This document shows, piece after piece, positions 32,419 through 64,000 of a DNA stretch of 64,000 nucleotides. The first letter of the stretch is position 1, and every line of letters starts with the position of its first letter. Location of the stretch: the sequence record PP400782; one strand, written 5' to 3'. Both the position numbers and the translations under genes were made by a program. Under the pieces are notes generated by a model. It had not been told where the DNA came from. It did not search any database and saw only the letters and a program-made list of their open reading frames with translations. This DNA is from Escherichia phage FL31.

Positions 32419-34632
32419 TTATTTGGCCGCTTCCACGGCCTTCATGAATTTAACGATTTGAGCGACCTGTTCTTTTGAAAGAGTACCACGTCGTCCCATG
32501 TATTCTGACACAATATGATAATTGGTTTCGAATTCGATAACCATTTTATCATCATTATCGTAAGCATTATCTTTAAGCTTATCGAAAATTTTAGCACACA
32601 ATTCTAACTTCTTATTCAGGTCTCTGTTATCAGCACCTGCGAATCGATTCCATCCCCAACGATTATTTACTGTTGAGAGTTTTGCAAAGTCTTTACTGAT
32701 TTCTTTGTTCTTAGAGCTAAAATACTTACTAAGGAAGTTAAGCTCTTCATTACGAGTAATATGATTCAAATAAGGCTGTGCTCTACGACTTGGTGATACA
32801 TACTCATCATAATCCACTTTATCGATTAGCGTAATATAGTCATTAATTGATTTTTCGAACAAGCATTCTACTTCACCAAGTTTACGAACTTTCTTAGCAA
32901 TCTGTGGACGAACTACAGTGAACTCTTTAATACCTGACAAATCAGCAATACGGGTCAAGAAATTGGAGTCATAGTTCAACCAACCTTTATCTGAGTCAAG
33001 ACATTCAGCATTAGAACGATTACGAACTATAGCATAACCTTGGATTTCATCTGCTTCACTTGCCGGAATAAAGAGGTCTTCTGATACCCAAACATCGTTT
33101 TCATTCTTAAAGAATCGATGAGCACTTGGGGATTTAGGACGAGGCTCATTAGTCCGTTTCCTGACTTCAATCCATGGCTTAACGATTTGTAAAAGCTCTG
33201 AAGTCTTGTACATGTTAATGTTGTCGCCATCAAAGATACCTTTAAGGCGTTCCAGAAGTTTCATTGCATCTTCGTCTGTAGGGTCAACGAATAGTACGCT
33301 TTTACCAAAACCGCGTGGAACTTTACCAGTTAATTTAACCTCGTCTTTAGACATTTCAATTGAATTAAGAGCTCGCATTAATGGAACGCGTCCCTTAACG
33401 TCGTCAATAACAATTTCAACGTTTTTAATGTTAATGCCAATCAGGCTGTTAATTGAAATGGTTGATGATGAGCTACCACTTTCACGAATACGACGAAGAC
33501 GAGGGGATTCAACGATATCGTATACGACGCCAAGATTACACCACTCAGGCCCCATTTTAAAACGTTTGTACAACTCGGAATAAGTTAGTTGTTCTTTAGA
33601 GTATTTCAGTGATTCAATATTAGACCCAGCCTTTTCCATGTATTTACGAGCGGTATAGCCAAGAGAATCAATTTCACGGAACACACGACGTGGGTATTTA
33701 CAATCAATCCATTTCTTAGAATCTTCAGCGAACAATTTAGCATCGATTTCTGCAACGCGTTTATGGATATTTGCTACTGTACGTTTATCAAATGACAACG
33801 CTTCACGAGACGGGGCTACATCTAGTTCACCCATAGGGAATTTAATATAAGCTGTAGTGCATCGCGTCATCATCCATGTTTGTTCTTTAATAACACTTCC
33901 GATTGGATATACAATACCACCATAAACAGCCATGATATTACCACGTTCACCCCATGGAGCTTCCTTGGCCAAATAAACGTCATCGAATTCCGGGAAGTAT
34001 TTGATATCTTTAACACCGCGAACTTCTGCAATATCACCTAGAGGACGCATAACATATGCAATTTCGGATGCGAACTTTTCAAAATCTTCTGGATTAACCG
34101 GTACAACTACTTCTACACCCGTACGGTCATCAGGGCCCATCTTATCTACAAAGGTTGGCTTAATTTGTGGACCTGTGTCATCTTGGTAGATTACGTAACC
34201 ACGAACTTCACCATTATGATAAGAAGTAATGTTAAACGTATCGGTATATGCTAGTGGAGCTTTAGAGCCGAGTCCGAAACCACCAATGAAATCGTTACTC
34301 GATGTTTTAGTTGAAGCAAAATATGAGTTATAGATTCCTGGCTCTTCATCATTACCACGAATAGTGAAATCACTCATACCAGGACCAAAGTCTCGAACTA
34401 CAAAACGTGGGTCTAAACGACCTGGAGCCTGAACAATAAACTTATCAGTGCAACCATTAAGAATTTGTCCATCGATACAGTTTGTGATTAATTCACGTAC
34501 ACAAGCCAATTCTTTGTTTGTATAAAGGTCATTAGACAAAATCTTATAAACTTTACTATTGCCTTGAATAGTAAATGCTGTGCTTTTACCACCAGAACCA
34601 ATAATCGTTTCTTTAGCCGTTTCAATAATCAT
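32419..34632 (-). CDS. rIIA: rIIA protein (N-terminal GHKL-type ATPase-like fold)
   Basis: 737 aa; N-terminal ELITNCIDG...DFGPGM motifs; synteny with rIIB. Confidence 0.9.
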   Translation of the reverse strand: MIIETAKETIIGSGGKSTAFTIQGNSKVYKILSNDLYTNKELACVRELITNCIDGQILNGCTDKFIVQAPGRLDPRFVVRDFGPGMSDFTIRGNDEEPGIYNSYFASTKTSSNDFIGGFGLGSKAPLAYTDTFNITSYHNGEVRGYVIYQDDTGPQIKPTFVDKMGPDDRTGVEVVVPVNPEDFEKFASEIAYVMRPLGDIAEVRGVKDIKYFPEFDDVYLAKEAPWGERGNIMAVYGGIVYPIGSVIKEQTWMMTRCTTAYIKFPMGELDVAPSREALSFDKRTVANIHKRVAEIDAKLFAEDSKKWIDCKYPRRVFREIDSLGYTARKYMEKAGSNIESLKYSKEQLTYSELYKRFKMGPEWCNLGVVYDIVESPRLRRIRESGSSSSTISINSLIGINIKNVEIVIDDVKGRVPLMRALNSIEMSKDEVKLTGKVPRGFGKSVLFVDPTDEDAMKLLERLKGIFDGDNINMYKTSELLQIVKPWIEVRKRTNEPRPKSPSAHRFFKNENDVWVSEDLFIPASEADEIQGYAIVRNRSNAECLDSDKGWLNYDSNFLTRIADLSGIKEFTVVRPQIAKKVRKLGEVECLFEKSINDYITLIDKVDYDEYVSPSRRAQPYLNHITRNEELNFLSKYFSSKNKEISKDFAKLSTVNNRWGWNRFAGADNRDLNKKLELCAKIFDKLKDNAYDNDDKMVIEFETNYHIVSEYMGRRGTLSKEQVAQIVKFMKAVEAAK

Positions 34633-34937: not shown

Positions 34938-36038
34938 TTACGCTGTGAAGATTTTATCCCACATCGCAACAACCGCATCTCGGTTATACTTCTTCCATAC
35001 TGCTTCAGCACGTTTAACTCGAGCTTCGTATGTGTCAGTGAATTCTAATACAGCTTTTGTGTAAAGCGCAACTACTTCTTTCTTAGGAGTAGAGGAATCA
35101 ATTTCTACACGCACAGTATCTGGGTCATATTCGAATGTCGCGTGCGGATAATCCTTAAAAACTAACTGGATTACAGGGACACCTTTAGAGATGGCTTCAA
35201 TAGAACTATTCTCTACCGTACCTGTGTCAGGACACGTATTAATAAGTGCTTTAGCTGTTTTAAGACGTTCCATGATTTCACTGTGTGGAGCATCAATAAT
35301 AACAGGATATTTAGCTGGTGGCGCCCATTTGCTTGGACAGTATCCTGCACCATTTTCGCCTAGTGCTTTAATCGCTTCAAGAGCAACATCAGTACGACGC
35401 ATTTTAGTGTCATAACGTTGTGCACTAATAATCAGATCCGTCGCCGGAAGAACTTCAGGTTTCTCATTCAAACAAATAACCGGATAATCTTCGGCTTCAA
35501 ACAACGGATTTGCTCGCCAATAATCATAATCAATTTTGTCAGTCAGACCTGAAGTCATATAACAATATTTGCGTTCAAATTCACGGAAGGCTTTAGTAGG
35601 AGCATAACTCTTACCACCGTTCTTATGAATTTGAATAGTCTGGTCCCAAATTTGAACAATGCCACGAGATACCGGTTCAAATGGTGTTGCCATAAAATTC
35701 TTATGAACTTTAGAGAGACCCGCGTCTTTAATTGCCTGAACGGTTAGTTTGGTCGGTTCCATTGTAACAACGAAATCATACTCATTAATGCCGGCTAGTT
35801 CAACAATCTTACGAGCCATAGTATAACTCATACCTAGACTGAATTTAGTCAGATGACCAACAGGATGATGATTAACCTTCCAGTCACCAAACGTGTCATT
35901 ATCAAAGCCGATATAATCAATATCAGCACCGATGGACACAAGATATTTCAACACATTTAAATGTACTGCTTCAAGACCACCTTGTACACGTTCTGGGTTA
36001 AATGGGACTGCGCGAGATGGGATAAACATAACTTTCAT
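34938..36038 (-). CDS. GT-B fold glycosyltransferase (GT4-like); candidate DNA sugar transferase
   Basis: N-terminal GGLE motif (PERVQGGLEAVHLN) and C-terminal E-x7-E / G-x-P-V-I signature (TVENSSIEAISKGVPVIQL); lies between gene 39 and rIIA where T4 has no such gene. Confidence 0.65.
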   Translation of the reverse strand: MKVMFIPSRAVPFNPERVQGGLEAVHLNVLKYLVSIGADIDYIGFDNDTFGDWKVNHHPVGHLTKFSLGMSYTMARKIVELAGINEYDFVVTMEPTKLTVQAIKDAGLSKVHKNFMATPFEPVSRGIVQIWDQTIQIHKNGGKSYAPTKAFREFERKYCYMTSGLTDKIDYDYWRANPLFEAEDYPVICLNEKPEVLPATDLIISAQRYDTKMRRTDVALEAIKALGENGAGYCPSKWAPPAKYPVIIDAPHSEIMERLKTAKALINTCPDTGTVENSSIEAISKGVPVIQLVFKDYPHATFEYDPDTVRVEIDSSTPKKEVVALYTKAVLEFTDTYEARVKRAEAVWKKYNRDAVVAMWDKIFTA

Positions 36039-48019: not shown

Positions 48020-48541
48020 TTAATAACCTCGGTCTTGACGAGCAAAGTTTTCAGCATTCTTCAGATAATACAGTTTAAAGATTTCTTCGGCAGAAAGACC
48101 CAGACCTTGGAACATGTTCAGAACGAAGTGCAGAATATCAATCATTTCGAATTTAATTTCGAGCTGGTCTTCAGGAGACAGTTCATCAATACGACGATTA
48201 CGATATTCAGCATGTTGTGCTTTCCATGGCTTCCACACAGAGCTGGCAGCTTTTTCACCGTTGGACATACCACCAAGTGAAGTCAGCAGTTCACGAAATT
48301 CATCATCAATATAATCTTTCTGATTACGCAGCCAATCAACAACATCGCCAGCAGTGGCCAATTCATCAGGATGTTTGTTATGTTCAGGCTTGTCATTTGC
48401 CAAACGAACCTGTAAAGATTTCTGCATATCAAGCATTACCTGCAGTGGGTCTTTATCTTCGTGAATCAGAGCATTAAAATAAGCTTCTTCTGCTTTATCA
48501 ACACCAGAAATAAGTTGTGAACATTCGTTAAAGTGTGCCAT
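48020..48541 (-). CDS. 56: dCTP pyrophosphatase gp56 (MazG-like)
   Basis: MAHFNEC...DPLQVMLDMQ...IDDEFRELLTSLG...EIFKLYYLKNAENFARQDRGY matches recalled T4 gp56. Confidence 0.9.
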   Translation of the reverse strand: MAHFNECSQLISGVDKAEEAYFNALIHEDKDPLQVMLDMQKSLQVRLANDKPEHNKHPDELATAGDVVDWLRNQKDYIDDEFRELLTSLGGMSNGEKAASSVWKPWKAQHAEYRNRRIDELSPEDQLEIKFEMIDILHFVLNMFQGLGLSAEEIFKLYYLKNAENFARQDRGY

Positions 48542-55166: not shown

Positions 55167-56310
55167 GGTCGTTTTCTATATCTGCTGCAGACGGAGCATC
55201 AGAAGTTTTAACCGGAACTTTAGTTGTTGCTTTGCAATTAATAAGGTCGTTAACAGCGTCATCAACTTCTTTAATAGAAGAGATAGCACCTAGTTTATAT
55301 TTAGTTTCAATTGCATCTCGGAAAGGTTTGTGTTTAAACAACGGTCCCCAGAATTCTACACAATCAGTAGCTTTAGCACGCCATGATTTTTCTTCACGAA
55401 TCATTTCGCCTGTTTCTTCGTCAAGGAATTCACGAGCATACCACCCGGCTTTAGGCTTAACTACAAAACCAATTTCAGTTGCCATTTCTAACAAGCCACT
55501 GAATGGGTCAATACCGCCATCAAAATTAACCGTGATCGGGAAAGTAGATTTCTCTTTAACTGTACGAGATTTTTCTGCTTTCAACGTGAAGTCATAACCG
55601 GTCAATTCAGTGCCATCTTTAACCTGACGTTTAGAGATAAAGAATACAGTGTTAGCCGAGTAAAGAATACCTGTACCGCCGCCCATAATCTCTTTAGGAT
55701 ACAATCCGCCAATTTCCATTGCTGTATGGTTGATTGCAACACATGGAATATCTTTAATAGTCAGATAAGGAGTCACAATGCGGAACAGAGATTTAAGTGC
55801 CTTAGCACGAGACATATCACCTACGACTTTCTCGTTCAACGCATCTTCGGTTTCTTTCTTAGATGCAGTATTACCGATTGAATCGATAAAGATAATAACT
55901 TTATCACCGCGTTCAATCGCGTCAAGCTGATTAGTCATATCAACTTTAAGTTGTTCGACAGATTGAATAGGAGTATGAACTACACGGTCTAAATCAACAC
56001 CCATTGAACGAAAATAAGATTCCGAAGCACCAAATTCTGAATCATAGAACAAACAAATTGCATCTTTATATTTCTTCATATATGCTGCAACCATGGTCAG
56101 TCCAAACAATGTTTTAAAATGTTTAGAAGGTGCAGCAAAAATAGTCAAGCCTGATTGCAATCCTGCATTCAGTGCACCACCTAGTGCAATATTCAACATT
56201 GGAATACGAGTAGGGACTTCATCACGATTATTAAACAACTTAGACTTAGTCAAGTCTGCAGTCATTTTAGAAGTAGAAGCTTTAATCAGACGAGATTTTA
56301 GATCAGACAT
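55138..56310 (-). CDS. uvsX: UvsX recombinase (RecA-like)
   Basis: 390 aa; MSDLKSRLIKASTSK...GLTIFAAPSKHFKT...REFLDEETGEMIREEKSWRAK matches recalled T4 UvsX. Confidence 0.95.
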   Translation of the reverse strand: MSDLKSRLIKASTSKMTADLTKSKLFNNRDEVPTRIPMLNIALGGALNAGLQSGLTIFAAPSKHFKTLFGLTMVAAYMKKYKDAICLFYDSEFGASESYFRSMGVDLDRVVHTPIQSVEQLKVDMTNQLDAIERGDKVIIFIDSIGNTASKKETEDALNEKVVGDMSRAKALKSLFRIVTPYLTIKDIPCVAINHTAMEIGGLYPKEIMGGGTGILYSANTVFFISKRQVKDGTELTGYDFTLKAEKSRTVKEKSTFPITVNFDGGIDPFSGLLEMATEIGFVVKPKAGWYAREFLDEETGEMIREEKSWRAKATDCVEFWGPLFKHKPFRDAIETKYKLGAISSIKEVDDAVNDLINCKATTKVPVKTSDAPSAADIENDLDEMEDFDE

Positions 56311-56363
56311 TGTATTTTTCCATAGGCATCATTATATTTTACTCATGTTTAAAAGATAAGATG

Positions 56364-56388
56364 ATTATATACTAAGGGTTATACAGCA
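56364..56388 (-). promoter_or_regulatory. possible middle promoter upstream of uvsX (imperfect MotA box + -10 TATAAT)
   Basis: Minus strand aaaTGCTGTA-N12-TATAAT; one mismatch to the TGCTT core. Confidence 0.3.
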
Positions 56389-56408
56389 TTTAAAACTTTA
56401 AATGGCTC

Positions 56409-56957
56409 TTAACGAGCCCATTTGATGATTTCTGTAATCAAACCATTACGTTCGCTTGCATTAAATCCTATAACTTTGTTAGCACCATCATGATTAAGTA
56501 ATTGATACGTTTGGATTTTGTTATGAATTGCAAACTCTTCAAAATATGAAATGACTGTATTAAAACCGAATGAAGACAAAGTAATAAGGTCGTCTTCAAA
56601 ACTTTCAGTCATTTCGTTACGTGTTAAAATAATTGTGAACACATCATGGTTTTGGCAAAGACGAACATAGTCCTGTTCATAAACGTCAAGAATCGAGTCC
56701 GCATCTTGTCGAATACGTCCATAAACCCAGTTACTAATATATCCACGGTCTAACAGATAAATCTTAGTAGGGTCTAAATAATTCAACATCGTTTCGAAAC
56801 AGCCGACTTCATTTCGAGACTTAACATCGAAACGCCCATCAACTGTTCGTTTAGGGAAATCAATCTTTACATATCTTTCACTAATTTCCATTATGTCATT
56901 AATGAAAGTTGTTTTACCAGCATTATCTGGGCCATCTACTAAAATAATTTTAGCCAT
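56409..56957 (-). CDS. P-loop NTPase, nucleoside/nucleotide kinase-like (182 aa)
   Basis: Walker A ILVDGPDNAGKTT at the N-terminus, dNK/thymidylate-kinase-like layout; between 42 and uvsX. Confidence 0.55.
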   Translation of the reverse strand: MAKIILVDGPDNAGKTTFINDIMEISERYVKIDFPKRTVDGRFDVKSRNEVGCFETMLNYLDPTKIYLLDRGYISNWVYGRIRQDADSILDVYEQDYVRLCQNHDVFTIILTRNEMTESFEDDLITLSSFGFNTVISYFEEFAIHNKIQTYQLLNHDGANKVIGFNASERNGLITEIIKWAR

Positions 56958-56958
56958 T

Positions 56959-57858
56959 TTATTCCTCGATTACGACATCTTCATATTTAGGTATATTATA
57001 CGGCGAAGAAATTAAAGCGTTAAAGTAGATGAACTCACCAAGACCTGGATGGAATACTTCTTCAGGATTTTCGAAATATTGAATCTTCGGACGTCCTTTA
57101 AGAATTTGATAGTACTCAGTTTTAGTTGGTTTAAAAATTCGAATCAACGCTTCTTCAGGATACTTATTTCTGTCGAAGCTATTATTTGGATCAGTTATAT
57201 AAAGCGGTTGACCTAATTGAATTGCGCATTCAACAACTTGTTCAAAACGATAACACGGGTCACTAATTCGAAATGGATGAAAAATACCATCTAGATGAAT
57301 AGGAGCCAAATCACCTACAAGACGCTGCATGATGGAAGGACGTATAACTTTCTGCGTTACGATAATCTTATTACCATCTGCACCAGCGTTAACCAGCACT
57401 TCTTTTTGACGTTCATTCAACACAGTAGTTTGAAGTGAACGATTAACCGACAACATATCAGTTTTTAAGAATTCATCAATATAAAAACGTGGTTTATTAG
57501 GGTCTGCAGTGATATTGAAATTGAATTCCACATCAAAAGCGCCGTCATATCCAGTGATATCTGTGATTAGAAAATCACAGTCATAATAAGCAATTAATGA
57601 ATCAACCACAAATTCATTTTCAGACCAGAAATATTTACGAGTGTTATACGCGTTATCTTTATACCATAATGGAACAAACTTAAATTCTGGAAAAAGACGT
57701 TCGCATTCTTTAATATCAGATGCATTACGTGGATATGTAATCACATCACCCGGATTAGCACGGTGCAAATGAAGTTGGAAGTTGCCATCCTTAAGGATAG
57801 CATACTGTCCAGTTTCATAAGACCGCATACTCAAAATAGGTACGCGGAAAATAGCCAT
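56959..57858 (-). CDS. hypothetical protein (299 aa) at the locus where T4 encodes beta-glucosyltransferase
   Basis: ORF translationally coupled to gene 42 (TAATG); no recognisable beta-gt similarity. Confidence 0.5.
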   Translation of the reverse strand: MAIFRVPILSMRSYETGQYAILKDGNFQLHLHRANPGDVITYPRNASDIKECERLFPEFKFVPLWYKDNAYNTRKYFWSENEFVVDSLIAYYDCDFLITDITGYDGAFDVEFNFNITADPNKPRFYIDEFLKTDMLSVNRSLQTTVLNERQKEVLVNAGADGNKIIVTQKVIRPSIMQRLVGDLAPIHLDGIFHPFRISDPCYRFEQVVECAIQLGQPLYITDPNNSFDRNKYPEEALIRIFKPTKTEYYQILKGRPKIQYFENPEEVFHPGLGEFIYFNALISSPYNIPKYEDVVIEE

Positions 57859-58574
57859 TAGTCAAGGAATCCTTTAACATAATCAAAATCACGTTCAAAC
57901 ACATGGGCACTTACCATGGTATGAGTATAATCACCAACTTCTACATCACATTCGTTAGCGATATAATGAAGTAATTTTCCTTGGAGATAAAAATCCAACT
58001 GCATAACAACAGCACAGTTCTGAGAACGCATATGACAGTGGGTATAAAGCTTACCATCACGAATATAATAAGTCACTGAGTCAGTACATGGATATTCAAG
58101 CGTTTCGTCTGAATCAAGCAAAGCCTGATCAGAACTTTCTAGAATTTGGAACACAACTCTTCGGGAGTTAGGCTTCTCTTTAAGTTCTTTTAGAAGAGCT
58201 GGTAATTGGGCCGCAATGCGAGGACCATAGAAAGTGTTGAAGTTCGCCGGCAAAACATCTGATTTTGGTTTAGAAATAAATTTAGCGACATTAGGATATG
58301 CCTTAAACGCTTCTTCTGCGTTGGTACCACCAGAAATCATAAACTTCCAGAAGTCTTCAGCATATTCATAAGAGATGCGGTTAATACGTGGGTCGGTCAT
58401 TTTGAATGATGATGGAGTGTCAACAACTACTGTCATAGACCCAATTTCATTACAACGTCCAATACGAGAATCAGTTACGAATTCCGGGTTTTCTAAAATT
58501 TCACGATTGACTGCTTTAAATGCGGTTTGAAAATCTGCGGCTTTGATATATTTCATTGTGTTATGTTTTCCCAT
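57858..58574 (-). CDS. 42: dCMP hydroxymethylase-like enzyme (thymidylate-synthase fold; gene 42 equivalent)
   Basis: TS-family core YPCTDSVTYYIRDGKLYTHCHMRSQNCAVVMQLDFY with Asp at the position that is Asn in thymidylate synthases (cytosine-type); synteny after gene 43. Confidence 0.75.
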   Translation of the reverse strand: MGKHNTMKYIKAADFQTAFKAVNREILENPEFVTDSRIGRCNEIGSMTVVVDTPSSFKMTDPRINRISYEYAEDFWKFMISGGTNAEEAFKAYPNVAKFISKPKSDVLPANFNTFYGPRIAAQLPALLKELKEKPNSRRVVFQILESSDQALLDSDETLEYPCTDSVTYYIRDGKLYTHCHMRSQNCAVVMQLDFYLQGKLLHYIANECDVEVGDYTHTMVSAHVFERDFDYVKGFLD

Positions 58575-58593
58575 GTTTACCTCAATACAATTT

Positions 58594-58618
58594 ATTATAT
58601 ACTCAATTCGTAAAGCTT
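58594..58618 (-). promoter_or_regulatory. middle promoter candidate for gene 42 (MotA box-like GCTTTA + 11 bp + TATAAT)
   Basis: Minus strand aaGCTTTAcgaattgagtaTATAATaaattgtattGAGGtaaacATG. Confidence 0.4.
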
Positions 58619-58856
58619 ATTTGAATTTCTTGGCAATGTTGATATAACGTAAAGCTTCACCATCAATACTTCCAAGAACACTATGAAGAAATGCATCGGC
58701 GTAGTATTCCAATTGAACAGGTTCTTTAATCACTTTAGCCGCTTTAGTTTCAAACAGGCCCATCAGGGCCTTTTTAAGAATTTGTTCATTAGTGTTCAGA
58801 TTCATAGTCAAAATCTCTTCATTAAGTTGGTGGTTAAAAGTTTTTCTAGAAATCAT
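58617..58856 (-). CDS. hypothetical protein (79 aa)
   Basis: ORF overlapping the end of the upstream gene. Confidence 0.35.
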   Translation of the reverse strand: MISRKTFNHQLNEEILTMNLNTNEQILKKALMGLFETKAAKVIKEPVQLEYYADAFLHSVLGSIDGEALRYINIAKKFK

Positions 58857-60013
58857 TCCGGGTACCTCAAAGCGTCATCAGAGTTAGTTATATCAATAAT
58901 AGATATAGAGTTTTCTGCTAACCCGTTTTTAGATAATTGACGTTTATAATATCTTTCACAATATGTACACGTCGTCCCGCAGATTTCATTAGCACAATCG
59001 AAATCTGGATGTCTGAACCACCTTTTTTCTAAAAAGCCATCTAACAAAGAGGTTTCAATATTTACTGTATGTGAAAACTCAGTTTCGTTTTCAAGAGTGA
59101 AAATAGTCTCTAAAGGCTTCCACAGTTCTAACAAATTACCTTCAAACTTTTCAGAAGCGTATGCTTCAAGAACTTTCAAAATGTAGTCTGTGCTACCTGT
59201 ACGTCCTGAAACTTTGAATTGAGTGATACCAATATCATTATAAAGTTTCAAATCTTGAGGACGAACAAAACGAGTTCTCAACCAGTTAAATGGGTCTGTA
59301 TCACGAGCTTTAATACAGTGCTGCATAGGATATCCGTTTAAGGATTTAGCATCATCGGCTGTAACATCAGTACTATGGAAAATATAGCAAGAGTCACGAT
59401 AGCTACAATGTGTTGTATACCCTTTACCAGCATTAGAACAGAACTCATTTACAAGAACTTCAAATATTATATTGTTCTTATTGCAAAACTCTGCTGCACG
59501 CTTCAGGAAAGAAACTGAACGGTTCTTATGAATTCCACAGCAGACCTTTTTGATATTATACTGGTCATGCAAGTATTTGATTTGAGTTACAGCATCGACA
59601 TGTAGAATTGTTGAAACTTCAATCTCAATGTCTTTATTGACTTCACGAACAATTTCCATAACAACAGGGTTAGCGATAGTAATACGCCATACGCCTATTG
59701 ACCAAAGATACTGAACATAATCCTGAATAGCTTTCTTCTTCCACTCAACTAGTTCTCTTTTTGAACCAGGATTTATCGTGTTGAGTGTATAGTTAAAGCA
59801 AATACCTAATTCGTTACAACGTTTAACGTAATCTTCTAACATCTTTTTGTCAACGTCAGGAAGCCTAAAATCAGGTCTGGCTGCTACAAAAGCCATTTCT
59901 CTTGTAGAGCCGTATACTTCATTTATCAAGCTATTAGGATAAGTTTTATTGAGCTCTACGATTTTATCAAGAAGAGCTAAATCAAAATTCGTTCCGATTT
60001 TAAAAGTATTCAT
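58853..60013 (-). CDS. hypothetical Cys-rich protein (386 aa), possible metal/Fe-S binding; part of the sugar cluster
   Basis: Cys clusters CCGIHKN, FCSNAGKGYTTHCSYRDSC, C-terminal CANEICGTTCTYC; no confident family assignment. Confidence 0.5.
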   Translation of the reverse strand: MNTFKIGTNFDLALLDKIVELNKTYPNSLINEVYGSTREMAFVAARPDFRLPDVDKKMLEDYVKRCNELGICFNYTLNTINPGSKRELVEWKKKAIQDYVQYLWSIGVWRITIANPVVMEIVREVNKDIEIEVSTILHVDAVTQIKYLHDQYNIKKVCCGIHKNRSVSFLKRAAEFCNKNNIIFEVLVNEFCSNAGKGYTTHCSYRDSCYIFHSTDVTADDAKSLNGYPMQHCIKARDTDPFNWLRTRFVRPQDLKLYNDIGITQFKVSGRTGSTDYILKVLEAYASEKFEGNLLELWKPLETIFTLENETEFSHTVNIETSLLDGFLEKRWFRHPDFDCANEICGTTCTYCERYYKRQLSKNGLAENSISIIDITNSDDALRYPE

Positions 60014-60069
60014 TTTTTTGCATCTCGCGTTAATTAATGCGATGGTTTTTGCAGGTCTTACTTAAATTA

Positions 60070-60471
60070 TTATAGATTCGGTTTATATGATTTAAATGTT
60101 TCGAATTCGCCTTTATTCATAAGAGCTTTGAATTCGTCAGGACGCATAGCTTTGTCGTCGATAATCCAATCATATACTGGTTTATGTGTTAGCAAATTAT
60201 GGTACTTCAAGCCAATGTTCGCCAAGTTCTGAATCAGACTTGGGAGAATGTCAATTGCTATACGACCAGGACCTACTGACTTCATACCGCGAGCAGTGTA
60301 AAGCGTTATGGTATGCCCTGCATCATACAGGGCATTAATGGCAGTCACCATTTCGACGTCTGGTTTGAAGTTCACGTAATCACGATTGTTATTCCACTCT
60401 GTTATACAATCATCGACATCAAAACAAAGATTAAGCATGTTTTCTACACGGTGCATTAGATTCGTTCCCAT
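60070..60471 (-). CDS. HAD-superfamily phosphatase (small, sugar-phosphate phosphatase-like)
   Basis: HAD motif I FDVDDCIT; motif II ITLYTAR; motif III/IV K...WIIDDK. Confidence 0.6.
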   Translation of the reverse strand: MGTNLMHRVENMLNLCFDVDDCITEWNNNRDYVNFKPDVEMVTAINALYDAGHTITLYTARGMKSVGPGRIAIDILPSLIQNLANIGLKYHNLLTHKPVYDWIIDDKAMRPDEFKALMNKGEFETFKSYKPNL

Positions 60472-62141
60472 TGATGAGTGATATCGCCACCGATTGGACG
60501 ATAGGAAACACCAGTTTCTTTATCAGTTAGTACCCATTTACCAGGATTTTTTGTAATCAGAGTAGCCGTTACAGGTTCTGCTACGTCATAACTAATAGAG
60601 CCGTCTTGAAGTACACGGCCCATGTTACGTAATTGCTTAGTCAGAAGTTCCATACCTTTATAATATGCGGCTACCGCTTTAAGTGGATTATTCTTGAAAT
60701 AACCACCTAATGCAATCCAGATAATTGCTACAGCCAAATGATGATATTCATTAAACGAACTCAGCTTTCCATATTTGTAAACTAATGGATTGATGTTAAT
60801 AGTCACATTACAAGTTGTTTCATCAATAGTAAACTGTCCCCAGGTCGGATTAGCATTGAATTCATCATAACCTGAAACAGCATAAAGCACTTTAGCTTCA
60901 TCATACAATTTTGGCCCGTAAATCTTGGTTTCGCCAAAATATCCACGAGGGTCGATAAACTTGACTTCGCCGTTATCAGTAATCATAGTATTACTGAAGT
61001 TCGGGTCACCATGAATAACAGAGTACTGTCCCTGAGAACGGTTATGATAACGAATAAGGTGTTCTAAAGCTTGTTTCAGCATTGGCTTCAGACGTCTAAT
61101 CTTAGTGTAGTTCACATGTGTGATTTTACCAAATGAATCAATCAATGGTTGAATGCTTTCACAACGATCAATAACTTTCGTATAGAATTCTTTAGTGAAA
61201 TCACGACGAACAGTTTCAGGACTTACAAAATAAGTGTCTGTGCTGAATTTCAGTGCATCTAAAATTGCATCAACAATTTGTGGACGAGCAAGACTTGATT
61301 TGGATTTAATATATTCAAATGCCGGCTTACCTTTAATGCGTTCCATTTCAAAGTTATTTTCATTAACAGAAACTAACTGAGGAACTGAATCTGATTTCAC
61401 TTTCAAATACCACGAAATCTCATCTTTCTGAAGAGCTCGTCCCTGTTCGGTTAATGCGAATTTAGTTACAGTTTCTTCACCAATTTCAACTGCATTAAAA
61501 CTACGATTAAGTTCACGAACTTCATGGGCCTTTTCAAGTTTAGGCATATCACCTAAATCAATTAGATTCATAAGCTCTGATTTATTGAATGCGCTGCCGT
61601 AAAGGAATTCTACGAAATCACGTCCTTTGCAGTATTCATGAATTTCCTCATCAGTAGAACCCATATAGAATTCCCAGTCTTTGAACTGATAAATTCCTAC
61701 AACATTACCACCTGTTGAACCTACGTTAGTGATATTTTCACCGTCGAAATTATACCGACATTCATCACCCTTAACATAGATTGCGTTAACATTCCAAGAC
61801 CATGAACCAAAATCAGGAATAATATCACACCAGTTAACAATTACGTTATGGCCGTCTAAATCTTTGTGTAATTTAGCAAGAGCATAAGCAGAACCATACG
61901 CTTCATCAACTGTACGAATAGTCACATTGAACCCTTCTTGCTCACAATAAGCTCGAACAGTTTCAGCAAATTTTGAATGAACTACTACAATAATTTCATC
62001 TGCGCCAAGGTCAGAATAAATTGTATACAAATTGCTCAGAATAGTGTCTTGTTTATAGTTAACAAGCACCTTAGGAATATGATGCGTTATTGGATACAAA
62101 CGAGTTGCCAGTCCAGCACCAAGAATAACAGCTTTTTTCAT
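60456..62141 (-). CDS. bifunctional sugar-1-phosphate nucleotidyltransferase (N-terminal) / sugar kinase (C-terminal, APH/ChoK-like fold)
   Basis: N-terminal GAGLATRL nucleotidyltransferase signature; C-terminal Brenner-type IHGDPNFSNTMI and VKFIDPRG kinase motifs. Confidence 0.7.
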   Translation of the reverse strand: MKKAVILGAGLATRLYPITHHIPKVLVNYKQDTILSNLYTIYSDLGADEIIVVVHSKFAETVRAYCEQEGFNVTIRTVDEAYGSAYALAKLHKDLDGHNVIVNWCDIIPDFGSWSWNVNAIYVKGDECRYNFDGENITNVGSTGGNVVGIYQFKDWEFYMGSTDEEIHEYCKGRDFVEFLYGSAFNKSELMNLIDLGDMPKLEKAHEVRELNRSFNAVEIGEETVTKFALTEQGRALQKDEISWYLKVKSDSVPQLVSVNENNFEMERIKGKPAFEYIKSKSSLARPQIVDAILDALKFSTDTYFVSPETVRRDFTKEFYTKVIDRCESIQPLIDSFGKITHVNYTKIRRLKPMLKQALEHLIRYHNRSQGQYSVIHGDPNFSNTMITDNGEVKFIDPRGYFGETKIYGPKLYDEAKVLYAVSGYDEFNANPTWGQFTIDETTCNVTININPLVYKYGKLSSFNEYHHLAVAIIWIALGGYFKNNPLKAVAAYYKGMELLTKQLRNMGRVLQDGSISYDVAEPVTATLITKNPGKWVLTDKETGVSYRPIGGDITHQWERI

Positions 62142-62182
62142 GTTGAAGTCCTCATTGGTAAGTAGGAGTATTGTACACTATT

Positions 62183-62316
62183 CTAGTTAAAGCATTCATA
62201 CTTTGCTTGTAGTCCAATCATAATCCATCCAATTACAAGTGTTGGAATCATTACCGGAGCCGTTAAGCTCCAGTAGATAGTCATGACAAGCATCAATAGT
62301 AAAAGTCCTATTGTTA
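62183..62316 (-). CDS. small hydrophobic peptide (about 47 aa), not in supplied track
   Basis: Manual translation MKAITIGLLLLMLVMTIYWSLTAPVMIPTLVIGWIMIGLQAKYECFN; GAGG SD. Confidence 0.25.
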
Positions 62317-62322
62317 TTGCTT

Positions 62323-62958
62323 TCATTGTTCGCCTCGTAACATGGCACCTAGTGCACCGCCTGGATGGAACTTAAGGAAATCATTAGAGGTAAATCCACG
62401 TTCAGACGAAAGGTTGATAGCAAACGTATCGATAAGCGCTAACAATAATGTAGTGGACATTGTCGGAGCTAAAGAGTTCTCGTCAACTTCTACCGCGATA
62501 CCGGTACAGAACGTATAATCAAAAAGAGCTTCGTATTCTTGTGGAATGTCAGGGTTACAATGTAACAGAATCTGTTTAACCTGAGGACGAATCATACGAA
62601 GATGTTTAGCAACACCTATCATTTCTTCAGTCTTACCAGAACGACTGATGTGAACTAATACATCATTAGGTGCAATAAATCCTGCGTCACCATGAGAATA
62701 ATGCCCAGTGTTCAAGTACATACTTGGGATACCGAGTGAAGCAAAAGTCTCGGAAGCTTTAGTTGCGATATTAGCGTTCTTACCAACACCTGTAATAATT
62801 ACTCGGCTTTCATAATTACTAAGTCCCGGGCGTCGAAGAGTTTCTAGAATAGCATTATAACGAGCAGGGTTTTGACTAATTACTTTGGCCATAGCGGCCA
62901 AAGAAGAAGCTTGTTTTATGATTGCGTCAATAGCGATAGTAATAGGAGTAGTTTTCAT
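62323..62958 (-). CDS. SIS-domain sugar-phosphate isomerase (KdsD/KpsF arabinose-5-phosphate isomerase-like, lacking CBS domains)
   Basis: VIITGVGKNANIATKASETFASLGIPSMYLNTGHYSHGDAGFIAPNDVLVHISRSGKTEE parallels the recalled KdsD SIS core (GKSGHIG...ATFASTGTPS...HGDLGMV...AISNSGES). Confidence 0.7.
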   Translation of the reverse strand: MKTTPITIAIDAIIKQASSLAAMAKVISQNPARYNAILETLRRPGLSNYESRVIITGVGKNANIATKASETFASLGIPSMYLNTGHYSHGDAGFIAPNDVLVHISRSGKTEEMIGVAKHLRMIRPQVKQILLHCNPDIPQEYEALFDYTFCTGIAVEVDENSLAPTMSTTLLLALIDTFAINLSSERGFTSNDFLKFHPGGALGAMLRGEQ

Positions 62959-62998
62959 ATTTCTCTCATTTAATTAGTTTACCGTCCATGACATTATA

Positions 62999-64000
62999 TC
63001 AAAAATCGAACATATCGAACAGAGATGCTTTCTTCTCGTAATCGAGTTTCGCTGCTGATGTGAATCCTTCAAGTGGTTTAATAAATGTCTTCTCAAGGAG
63101 AACAGTGTAGTCCATCCAATGAAGTACATCGTCTTTAATTAAATCTGTGATTTCAGTACCAGAAGGCCATGCGATACATTTATCACCGAATGGGTTTCCT
63201 TCACGTAAAGGCAGAACATATACTTTTTCACCTTCTACAACTTGTGGTGCATCAATATTACCTTTGATAGCTCGGTTATATGTCAGAATTCCACGAATAT
63301 GGAACGGGCATTTGGGACCAGGGAATCCACCTACGTCATATTTAGCAATGTTATTCGCAGAAGATACCGACGCGATGCTAATATAATTCAATTGACGGAA
63401 TTCTTTTTCAAACTCTTTAAAATATTCTTGTAATGATTCTTCACCTTCTTGAAGCATACGACGAATACATTCTTTAAGAGCTTTCTGTACTGCTTTAGGA
63501 GTCGAAGATTTCTGAGTCTCTAGACCCATGATTTTGAGTTTAGGCTCGGCGTAACGAGTACCTTCCATATCCCACACGTTTAATGCATAACGTTTCTTAC
63601 CAGTCCAAAATCCACCAATACCTTTAGAACCGAGCGGAGGGCCAGCGATAGCTTCTCGGTCCATGAACATTAAGTGTTGTTTATTGTTCATGTATTCGCA
63701 CATTTCACGGAAACCTTTATCAATAGCAGGTTCCATACGTTCACGAGCGAACTTATCTAAGAAGTCTACCCAATGGTTAGTATCACGGAATTTAGATTCA
63801 CCAACCTTATCGATAATTTTATCAGCAGATACGTAAATAGAGTCTGTATCACCATATAGAACGAAAGCTTCACCTTCTGTACCACAAACTTCATTCAGAT
63901 ATTCATTAACTTTACGTTCAATCCACTGTAAAGCCATTTGACCAAATGTTGTGATTGCAGTAGCATTACGCAAATCATAATAACGGAACCAAACGTTGCC
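62999..64000 (-). CDS. 43: DNA polymerase gp43, C-terminal part (gene continues beyond the window end)
   Basis: Family B polymerase YGDTDS motif; frame stays open to the window edge (…GNVWFRYYDLRNATAITTFGQ…). Confidence 0.95.
   Translation of the reverse strand, partial: GNVWFRYYDLRNATAITTFGQMALQWIERKVNEYLNEVCGTEGEAFVLYGDTDSIYVSADKIIDKVGESKFRDTNHWVDFLDKFARERMEPAIDKGFREMCEYMNNKQHLMFMDREAIAGPPLGSKGIGGFWTGKKRYALNVWDMEGTRYAEPKLKIMGLETQKSSTPKAVQKALKECIRRMLQEGEESLQEYFKEFEKEFRQLNYISIASVSSANNIAKYDVGGFPGPKCPFHIRGILTYNRAIKGNIDAPQVVEGEKVYVLPLREGNPFGDKCIAWPSGTEITDLIKDDVLHWMDYTVLLEKTFIKPLEGFTSAAKLDYEKKASLFDMFDF

Follow-up and report, generated by a model that had tools for sequence, protein, structure and literature searches.

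What does a phage make with sugar-phosphate genes inserted between its DNA polymerase gene and a thymidylate synthase-like gene, and what is the cysteine-rich protein encoded among them for? The locus lies in Escherichia phage FL31 (sequence record PP400782), of which a stretch of 64,000 nucleotides (the window) was analyzed. The initial annotation described four genes there, encoding a sugar-phosphate isomerase, a nucleotidyltransferase/kinase fusion, a HAD phosphatase, and a 386-amino-acid (aa) Cys-rich protein that it left unidentified. Judged from its genes, the window almost certainly represents a Mosigvirus carrying the RB69/HY126-type cluster for arabinosyl-5-hydroxycytosine DNA. The Cys-rich protein (58853-60013) is assigned by profile match to the U32 family and, as its homology and gene neighborhood indicate, is probably a [4Fe-4S], prephenate-dependent, O2-independent pyrimidine C5 hydroxylase. 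Taken together, this cluster identity and this role of the U32 protein are very likely the best explanation of the locus.

Identity of the cluster and its arabinose donor route

The 6.8-kb block holding the cluster shares 98.7% identity with many Mosigvirus genomes, and a database search found it at least 80% covered in 151 phage records, so the arrangement is not due to chance. Its proteins are 98-100% identical to RB69 gp45-gp55, with the exception of ORF049c (94%): the isomerase and the phosphatase each share 98% identity with their RB69 counterparts, the AfhE-type fusion 99%, a 299-aa glycosyltransferase 99% (across split open reading frames, ORFs), the ThyA homologue 98.7% (RB69p048), and a Tmk-like kinase 97.8% (RB69p045). 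The genes, their order, the genus, and the signature of the base-modifying enzyme are the same as in the RB69/HY126 cluster, and the isomerase, fusion, and phosphatase genes are adjacent and in one orientation as they are there. Sequencing errors in the RB69 record break up ORFs 46/47 and 52/53, which are intact in the window. Nothing of substance was found against this identity. The genes of the cluster and those associated with it are as follows.

62323-62958, minus strand: SIS-domain D-arabinose-5-phosphate isomerase, RB69 gp55 orthologue; 211 aa, KdsD/GutQ-like, without the CBS pair
62183-62326, minus strand: hydrophobic ORF RB69ORF054c; 47 aa, its start overlapping the SIS stop codon
60456-62141, minus strand: AfhE-type bifunctional enzyme, RB69 gp52:53; 561 aa, NTP-transferase/kinase fusion
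60070-60471, minus strand: AfhF-type HAD phosphatase, RB69 gp51; 133 aa (longest ORF)
58853-60013, minus strand: Cys-rich U32-family protein, RB69 gp50; 386 aa
58617-58856, minus strand: RB69ORF049c; 79 aa, its start overlapping the U32 stop codon (ATGA)
57858-58574, minus strand: ThyA-family dCMP 5-hydroxylase (5-hydroxy-dCMP, 5hodCMP, synthase) by signature, RB69 gp48; the "gene 42" of the initial annotation
56959-57858, minus strand: candidate base-proximal arabinosyltransferase, RB69 gp46:47; 299 aa, from structure and synteny in PMC13326640
56409-56957, minus strand: Tmk-like nucleotide kinase, RB69 gp45; 182 aa, phrog_761 thymidylate kinase (E value, 2e-44)
48023-48541, minus strand: gp56 dCTPase; 99.4% identical to RB69p028 by tblastn
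34941-36038, minus strand: putative second arabinosyltransferase, RB69 ORF003c/gp3 orthologue; outside the module, beside rIIA, 99.2% identical over 366 aa by tblastn

An ORF listing of the window placed all four genes of the initial annotation on the minus strand at the coordinates it had given, and its description of a co-oriented, tightly packed cluster was confirmed; stop and start codons overlap, and the G + C content is even across the module. The four genes are flanked by the C-terminus of gene 43 (62999-63973) and by the ThyA homologue. The extent of the cluster had been drawn too narrowly, since two small ORFs, the downstream 299-aa glycosyltransferase, and the Tmk-like kinase were overlooked. 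The corresponding T4 interval had been said to hold only imm; it holds imm and imm.1, with beta-gt coming after gene 42, and the sugar genes are indeed lacking in T4. The absence of a beta-glucosyltransferase from its T4 locus was borne out as well, as the beta-gt slot is occupied by the unrelated 299-aa glycosyltransferase and the Tmk-like kinase, and the dCTPase was correctly described as kept. A promoter and terminator scan of positions 56300-63100 found fewer promoter-like sites than in shuffled controls and was therefore uninformative.

The domain assignments of the four proteins were upheld by profile searches. The isomerase matched Pfam PF01380 (E value, 1e-9), the NCBIfam models KpsF/GutQ (E value, 9e-32) and KdsD (E value, 4e-30), and phrog_5670. 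The fusion protein matched NTP_transferase (E value, 8e-10), with weak kinase-fold matches at residues 308-409, and contains the motifs GAGLATRL, IHGDPNFSN, and FIDPRG; by homology to HY126 AfhE, its N-terminal part was assigned as a sugar-1-phosphate nucleotidyltransferase forming UDP-arabinofuranose (UDP-Araf) and its C-terminal part as an APH/choline-kinase-like domain converting arabinose-5-phosphate (A5P) to arabinose-1,5-bisphosphate. The phosphatase matched the capsule biosynthesis phosphatase model TIGR01689 (E value, 5e-13) and phrog_1238 and carries a DVDD motif.

In the route described for HY126, an A5P isomerase is followed by the AfhE kinase, the AfhF HAD 5-phosphatase, and the AfhE uridylyltransferase, yielding UDP-Araf (He 2026 as cited in PMC13326640). 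From homology to HY126 and domain content, the SIS enzyme of FL31 would convert ribulose-5-phosphate to A5P, the kinase half of the fusion would phosphorylate A5P to the 1,5-bisphosphate, the HAD enzyme would strip its 5-phosphate, and the nucleotidyltransferase half would make UDP-Araf. The initial annotation had placed the dephosphorylation before the anomeric phosphorylation, which is not the published order of kinase, phosphatase, and uridylyltransferase (PMC13326640).

The module is already known from the literature of 2018-2026. Arabinose was found in RB69 DNA, and ORF055c and ORF53_52c were proposed as UDP-arabinose genes (Thomas 2018, PMC6024577); chemistry and enzymology were published in 2025-26 (Mahler 2025; He 2026; Lee 2026, PMC13326640), and the statement that this is not a described canonical pathway no longer holds. 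The proposal of a phage-made nucleoside diphosphate pentose, arabinose, used for DNA hypermodification instead of host UDP-glucose agrees with the RB69-type pathway. This call of an arabinose-type DNA sugar from sequence alone serves mainly as a positive control, and the remaining new lead is the U32 gene, which is specific and testable and for which a hydroxylase role was not found in the literature searched.

The modified base and the attachment of its sugars

The ThyA homologue indicates which base receives the sugar. In an alignment with E. coli ThyA numbering, it has E143, N169, and D177, compared with D143, D169, and D177 in T4 gp42, and so carries the 5hodCMP-synthase signature L143E + D169N + N177D, in which D169N marks the class (PMC13326640). 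RB69 gp48, its 98.7% identical orthologue, forms 5hodCMP with oxygen from 18O2 and binds flavin (PMC13326640). Mass spectrometry (MS) and nuclear magnetic resonance (NMR) showed that the sugar in RB69 DNA is ether-linked directly at C5 of 5-hydroxycytosine (Lee 2026, PMC13326640). The acceptor is thus predicted to be 5-hydroxycytosine, and not 5-hydroxymethylcytosine (hmC) as first annotated. The description of a "gene 42 with cytosine-type Asp" was right about the Asp (N177D) and wrong about the hydroxymethylase, the signature being that of an O2/flavin dCMP 5-hydroxylase.

From the literature on orthologues that are 98-99% identical, gp56 would turn dCTP back into dCMP and keep dCTP out, the ThyA homologue would hydroxylate dCMP at C5 with flavin and O2, and kinases would bring 5hodCMP to the triphosphate, which would replace C during replication. 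The hmC-glucosyl system of T4 likewise combines a dCTPase with a ThyA-family enzyme for which dCMP is the substrate and a glycosyltransferase that decorates a hydroxyl handle, and it uses the same slot between uvsX and gene 43. The handle differs, being a 5-CH2OH made via folate in T4 and presumably a 5-OH here (D169N, flavin and O2), and so does the sugar, which is glucose from host UDP-glucose in T4 and would be a phage-made arabinofuranose here, without alpha-gt or beta-gt homologues. The T4-type combination of Asp at ThyA position 169 with an alpha- or beta-glucosyltransferase is absent from the window, and in RB69 alpha-gt was not found in its usual region.

Both types of arabinosyltransferase are present by homology, the gp46:47-type at 56959-57858, which matches phrog_3891, and the gp3-type at 34941-36038. 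The first family was assigned by structure and synteny, and its activity was not reconstituted (PMC13326640); the role of the gp3-type enzyme as a second arabinosyltransferase has been proposed (PMC6024577, PMC13326640). On that published structural and syntenic evidence, the 299-aa protein would put the first arabinose on the 5-OH and the ORF003c homologue would add the second. Thanatos TH1_063, a homologue of the 299-aa protein, was reported to be a UDP-xylose pyrophosphorylase in vitro with no transfer to DNA (PMC12838424), so that two papers are in conflict on this family, one describing a pyrophosphorylase and the other a candidate first arabinosyltransferase (PMC13326640). Thanatos-2 has a homologue as well (L017, 6383-7285).

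The gp46:47-type glycosyltransferase also recurs in metagenomic and IMG/VR contigs (L021-L024, L043, L047, L054, L057, and L070), in a block of a Tmk-like kinase, sometimes a radical SAM/SPASM protein, this glycosyltransferase, a U32 protein, and DNA polymerase III alpha, where the gene for this glycosyltransferase often overlaps that for U32 or lies almost end to end with it. The pairing of the Tmk-like kinase with the base-proximal glycosyltransferase is constant in these contigs, and the window shows it too (56409-57858). Given this constancy, the first sugar might be attached at the mononucleotide level, a point that PMC13326640 leaves unresolved.

Two other accounts of the cluster were weighed. 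In one, hmC is formed by a gene-42 hydroxymethylase and then receives a phage-made sugar, with the isomerase followed by HAD dephosphorylation to free sugar, an anomeric kinase, and the nucleotidyltransferase. The ThyA homologue and T4 gp42 do have N177D in common and are both acidic at position 143, Thomas 2018 reported the modification as arabinosyl-hmC (ara-hmC) (PMC6024577), and the free-arabinose order still stands in Table 1 of PMC13326640. Against these stand the D169N substitution relative to T4 gp42, the 5-hydroxycytosine product and 18O2-derived oxygen of RB69 gp48, and the ether bond directly at C5; moreover, the ara-hmC assignment was called erroneous when Mosigvirus NP was measured to contain 5-ara-dC and 5-ara-ara-dC (PMC13390438), and HY126 AfhE phosphorylates A5P before AfhF strips the 5-phosphate (PMC13326640). 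The hmC account is already refuted for RB69 and is very improbable for FL31. Hardly credible is the other account, in which the genes are capsule- or lipopolysaccharide (LPS)-type auxiliaries gained by chance with no DNA role, or the U32 protein is a collagenase-type protease, even though GenBank and PHROG call the latter "peptidase" or "collagenase-like protease" and the HAD and SIS proteins are similar to enzymes of capsule biosynthesis. No peptidase mechanism has been established for the U32 family (PMC5727448), arabinose has been measured in the DNA (PMC13326640, PMC6024577, PMC13390438), inactivation of the AfhE homologue is reported in the literature to nearly abolish growth of phage Thanatos, and more than 200 phages keep the genes in the same place beside the base-modifying enzyme. 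The capsule/LPS account was rejected because of this fixed synteny and the published DNA chemistry.

The U32-family protein and its neighborhood

The Cys-rich protein matched Peptidase_U32 (PF01136) at 42.2 bits, with a gathering cut-off of 22.4. A database search returned phage orthologues that are 76-87% identical and a large metagenomic clade at 47-58%. Across genera, no other protein of the module is conserved as well (79-87% identity for U32), compared with 71-82% for the DNA polymerase C-terminus, 71-82% for the ThyA homologue, and 52-70% for AfhE. Residues E190, C203, C209, and C233 were invariant in clade alignments of both 96 and 121 sequences; in the latter, nine Cys residues were invariant and one was conserved at 98%, and E190, R206, Y210, H213, R237, K267, and R271 were likewise conserved. 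C203, C209, and C233 align with UbiU C169, C176, and C193, and E190, C203, and C209 align with RlhA E161, C169, and C176. An invariant, clade-specific CX4CX3CX2C cluster closes the C-terminus. The AlphaFold2 (AF2) model had a predicted local distance difference test score (pLDDT) of 93.9, and Foldseek against the PDB returned the U32 protein 5d88 as the top match (E value, 5e-7) together with generic TIM barrels only, while a sequence search of the PDB gave no match. The phage U32 proteins form a separate clade and are not orthologues of RlhA, TrhP, UbiU, or UbiV.

The characterized E. coli members of the family suggest a chemistry. RlhA makes 5-hydroxycytidine 2501 in 23S rRNA and needs E161, C169, C176, Fe-S assembly, and prephenate derived from chorismate mutase (PMC5727448). 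TrhP makes 5-hydroxyuridine in tRNA, and UbiU/UbiV hydroxylate ubiquinone anaerobically, with prephenate as the oxygen donor under anoxia and flavin/O2 enzymes doing the same job in air (PMC10990095). The phage protein shares with them the Pfam U32 domain, the TIM-barrel core, and the conserved essential Glu and Cys residues; RlhA and TrhP act at pyrimidine C5, as is presumed for the phage enzyme, and prephenate is the co-substrate of these proteins, to the supply of which the phage gene is linked genomically. It differs from them in its low identity (~20%), its occurrence on phage and viral contigs, its lack of DUF3656 and of a UbiT/UbiV partner, its own C-terminal four-Cys cluster, and its presumed substrate, a deoxynucleotide or DNA.

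The link to prephenate is seen in T4-like relatives. In the Enterobacter phage Entb_45, the ORF overlapping the U32 stop codon encodes an AroQ chorismate mutase (CM_2, 40.9 bits with a cut-off of 27). Chorismate mutase homologues occur in 56 phage records, and all inspected ones adjoin the U32 and ThyA-homologue genes; the hosts include Klebsiella, Serratia, Yersinia, Enterobacter, Edwardsiella, Erwinia, Proteus, Pectobacterium, Shewanella, and others. R11, R28, K39, E52, and S84 never vary in these phage proteins, which also retain Q88, while R51 is not conserved. Shewanella phage Thanatos-2 has a rearranged cluster in which U32 and chorismate mutase were relocated together and remain adjacent.

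Outside the T4-like phages, the clade was always found in nucleotide or DNA-modification neighborhoods in nine metagenomic contigs. The arrangements were dCMP deaminase-U32 (on contigs of up to 466 kb), U32-NT5C-deoxynucleoside kinase, U32-TAGT-dUTPase/DCD, AfhE-U32-DAHP synthase, and Tmk-like kinase-glycosyltransferase-U32-DNA polymerase III alpha; in contig L007, a DAHP synthase (E value, 3e-70) adjoins U32. A profile scan of IMG/VR yielded 48 U32 loci, 15 of them T4-like and 33 on other viral contigs, and the genes within 10 kb of U32 were counted as follows.

gp46:47-type glycosyltransferase: T4-like 15/15, other 23/33
AfhE: T4-like 15/15, other 16/33
SIS: T4-like 11/15, other 9/33
HAD: T4-like 15/15, other 1/33
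ThyA-type: T4-like 15/15, other 1/33
Chorismate mutase: T4-like 13/15, other 4/33
DAHP synthase: T4-like 0/15, other 6/33

The sole ThyA-type gene of the 33 other contigs encodes a protein closer to E. coli ThyA than to the hydroxylase. Three contigs carry glycosyltransferase, SIS, AfhE, DAHP synthase, and chorismate mutase genes followed by U32, in one orientation throughout. The uncultured phages with U32 have DNA polymerase III alpha-type replicases, and some of their contigs span 200-470 kb. The evidence for prephenate is one of genomic linkage, namely chorismate mutase in the 56 relatives and DAHP synthase in 6 of the 33 other contigs and in L007.

On this basis, the U32 protein would give an O2-independent route to the same 5-hydroxypyrimidine as the ThyA homologue, with dCMP, another nucleotide, or cytosine in DNA as its substrate. 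Mosigviruses would take prephenate from host PheA/TyrA, and most relatives in other genera would use their own chorismate mutase encoded beside U32. In enteric T4-like phages, U32 would back up the O2-dependent ThyA-fold enzyme, and in uncultured phages it would act as the sole hydroxylase in a pathway to arabinosyl-hydroxypyrimidines, some of these phages carrying what looks like a self-contained glycosyltransferase-SIS-AfhE-DAHP synthase-chorismate mutase-U32 module supplying both sugar donor and oxygen donor. We lean slightly toward the further view that U32 is the first virus-encoded prephenate-dependent, O2-independent hydroxylase of a DNA pathway, with two routes in the enteric phages and U32 alone in the uncultured ones. 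E. coli has comparable pairs in UbiI/H/F with UbiU/V and in TrhO with TrhP, where an O2/flavin enzyme and a U32 enzyme give the same product; here the O2-dependent partner is of ThyA fold, the genes are ~280 bp apart in a virus, and the redundancy is suggested by analogy.

The published hydroxylase needs O2, yet these phages infect gut bacteria, destroy dCTP, and carry an anaerobic ribonucleotide reductase, which in RB69 is encoded by nrdD and nrdG (NrdD/NrdG). The host range likewise counts in favor of the proposal, since no U32 gene was found at the isomerase-AfhE-HAD-ThyA-homologue arrangement of Acinetobacter phage Lazarus, and Acinetobacter phages, 57 of which are among the AfhE matches, are absent from the U32 matches listed. 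If the proposal is correct, an O2-independent U32 enzyme would explain full DNA modification without air, and prephenate-dependent hydroxylation would extend from RNA and quinones to DNA precursors. The phage protein, a soluble 386-aa enzyme with a probable mononucleotide substrate, would also offer a tractable system in which a U32 hydroxylase could be assayed in vitro for the first time, and a large set of uncultured phages would be marked as likely carriers of glycosylated hydroxypyrimidine DNA.

Several observations weigh against the hydroxylase role. The window has no chorismate mutase at an E value below 0.1, and Mosigviruses in general are without one, having an unrelated, poorly conserved 79-aa ORF049c in its place. 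U32 was also missing from the isomerase-AfhE-HAD-ThyA-homologue arrangement of the E. coli Dhakavirus WG01; since Dhakaviruses run the pathway without it, enteric phages do not strictly require U32. In the other contigs, ThyA-type genes might be situated farther than 10 kb from U32. No residue of the phage protein aligns with C232, the fourth Fe-S ligand of UbiU, although the clade-specific C192 or C158 might substitute for it. NCBIfam equivalog cut-offs were not reached (best score 18.5 bits, compared with 440 for UbiU, and TrhP equally weak), and the nearest E. coli paralogue was RlhA by hhalign (E value, 9e-6) and TrhP by hmmsearch (14 bits), a disagreement that led us to draw no conclusion on the substrate from the nearest paralogue. 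Hydroxylation in vitro has not yet been shown for any U32 protein (PMC10990095). RB69 gp50 appears only as a table row, "sugar or heterocycle reductase," and not in the text of PMC13326640, whose discussion names the RlhA and TrhP hydroxylation pathways without tying them to gp50. Literature searches, in a scope that left out He 2026 and Mahler 2025, which possibly address gp50, turned up nothing relevant that connects U32 proteins of phages with chorismate mutase, prephenate, or 5-hydroxycytosine.

That table label is the starting point for a different function, in which U32 is a sugar or heterocycle reductase or another redox enzyme, for example one tailoring the arabinose donor, and hydroxylates no base. 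Its TIM-barrel fold is common to many sugar enzymes, and it co-occurs with AfhE, SIS, and epimerase-like genes. The published route from ribulose-5-phosphate to UDP-Araf needs no extra enzyme (PMC13326640), however, and Acinetobacter phages make tri-arabinosyl-5-hydroxycytosine without U32 (PMC13326640; Lazarus locus). The linkage to chorismate mutase and DAHP synthase points instead to prephenate, the co-substrate of U32 hydroxylases, and outside the T4-like phages no other candidate hydroxylase lies within 10 kb, with an exception in 1 of 33 contigs; a reductase is thus unlikely. Somewhat more doubtful still is a hydroxylase acting on host or phage RNA (rRNA C2501 or tRNA U34) in the manner of RlhA and TrhP, which would tune translation and be unrelated to DNA modification. 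It is favored by the fact that the characterized nucleic-acid U32 enzymes all act on RNA (PMC5727448, PMC10990095) and that RlhA and TrhP are the nearest E. coli paralogues by hhalign and hmmsearch. It fits poorly with the lack of DUF3656 and the C-terminal regions of RlhA, with the presence of RlhA and TrhP in E. coli already, and with the constant location of U32 within DNA-modification or deoxynucleotide modules, where its neighbors include glycosyltransferase, AfhE, Tmk-like, dCMP deaminase, deoxynucleoside kinase, NT5C, and TAGT genes. A hydroxylase of the DNA pathway remains the reading that we prefer.

Smaller reading frames and variant loci

In length and position, ORF049c matches the Entb_45 chorismate mutase, and it was considered as a diverged form of that enzyme. 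This was rejected, as no CM_2, Pfam, or NCBIfam match was obtained, the BLASTP E value was 6.9, and the hhalign probability with the phage chorismate mutases was 0.1%; its AF2 model had a pLDDT of 66.6, and Yersinia and Serratia phages carry an ORF049c homologue and a chorismate mutase side by side. In Yersinia phage TG1 and Serratia phage 92A1, homologues with NHxLNE and YYxDAFxHS motifs lie between U32 and the chorismate mutase. ORF049c is translationally coupled to U32 and is mostly 80-97% identical among Mosigviruses, compared with at least 99% for U32; truncated variants of 47-58 aa or frameshifted two-piece matches are frequent, HY126 included.

The 47-aa ORF at 62183-62326 matches phrog_3610 over its full length (E value, 7e-27) and may be a small membrane protein. 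RB69p054 is 100% identical to it over 36 aa, and RB69 annotates just these 36 of the 47 aa, as "similar to T4 42-imm intercistronic region." Two starts are conceivable for the HAD gene: the 133-aa ORF shares 16 nt with the end of the AfhE gene, and the RB69 protein is annotated from Met6 (window position 60456), giving 128 aa and an ATG that overlaps the AfhE stop codon. Divergence from RB69 is uneven along the window, rIIA (32422-34632, minus strand) being just 92.8% identical and the modification cluster, gp56, imm, and ORF003c 98-100% identical.

In Dhakavirus WG01 (L013, 4440-9151), AfhE (42% identity), HAD, the ThyA homologue (78%), and the glycosyltransferase are present, a tblastn search gave no match to the SIS isomerase, and a 166-aa unannotated ORF stands at the isomerase position; this phage may use a different sugar route or a different sugar.

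Two further U32 loci depart from the arabinose arrangement. In L003/L004 (8001-15428), U32 precedes genes for NT5C, an NMN transporter, a deoxynucleoside kinase, an AlaX-like protein, a radical SAM/SPASM protein, another U32 paralogue that is more distant, and a nucleoside deoxyribosyltransferase-like protein, which looks like a different nucleoside-modifying pathway. A Glu-Cys ligase and a dockerin-bearing GH43 protein on one of these contigs make it probably part of a Firmicute genome or prophage. In L008 (9098-10000 and 13073-14179), U32 precedes a TAGT-family protein (PF20691; E value, 4e-8) and a dUTPase/DCD-like gene, with a UDP-galactopyranose mutase ~4 kb downstream. In TET/JBP-TAGT modules, an O2/2-oxoglutarate oxidase makes the base hydroxyl that TAGT decorates; L008 has no TET domain, the chemistry of U32 is a different one, and this metagenomic relative, not the window, is what the comparison concerns. 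The U32 gene lies directly upstream of the TAGT-family glycosyltransferase, in the TET position, which suggests a galactofuranosyl-hydroxypyrimidine modification in which U32 replaces the TET oxidase.

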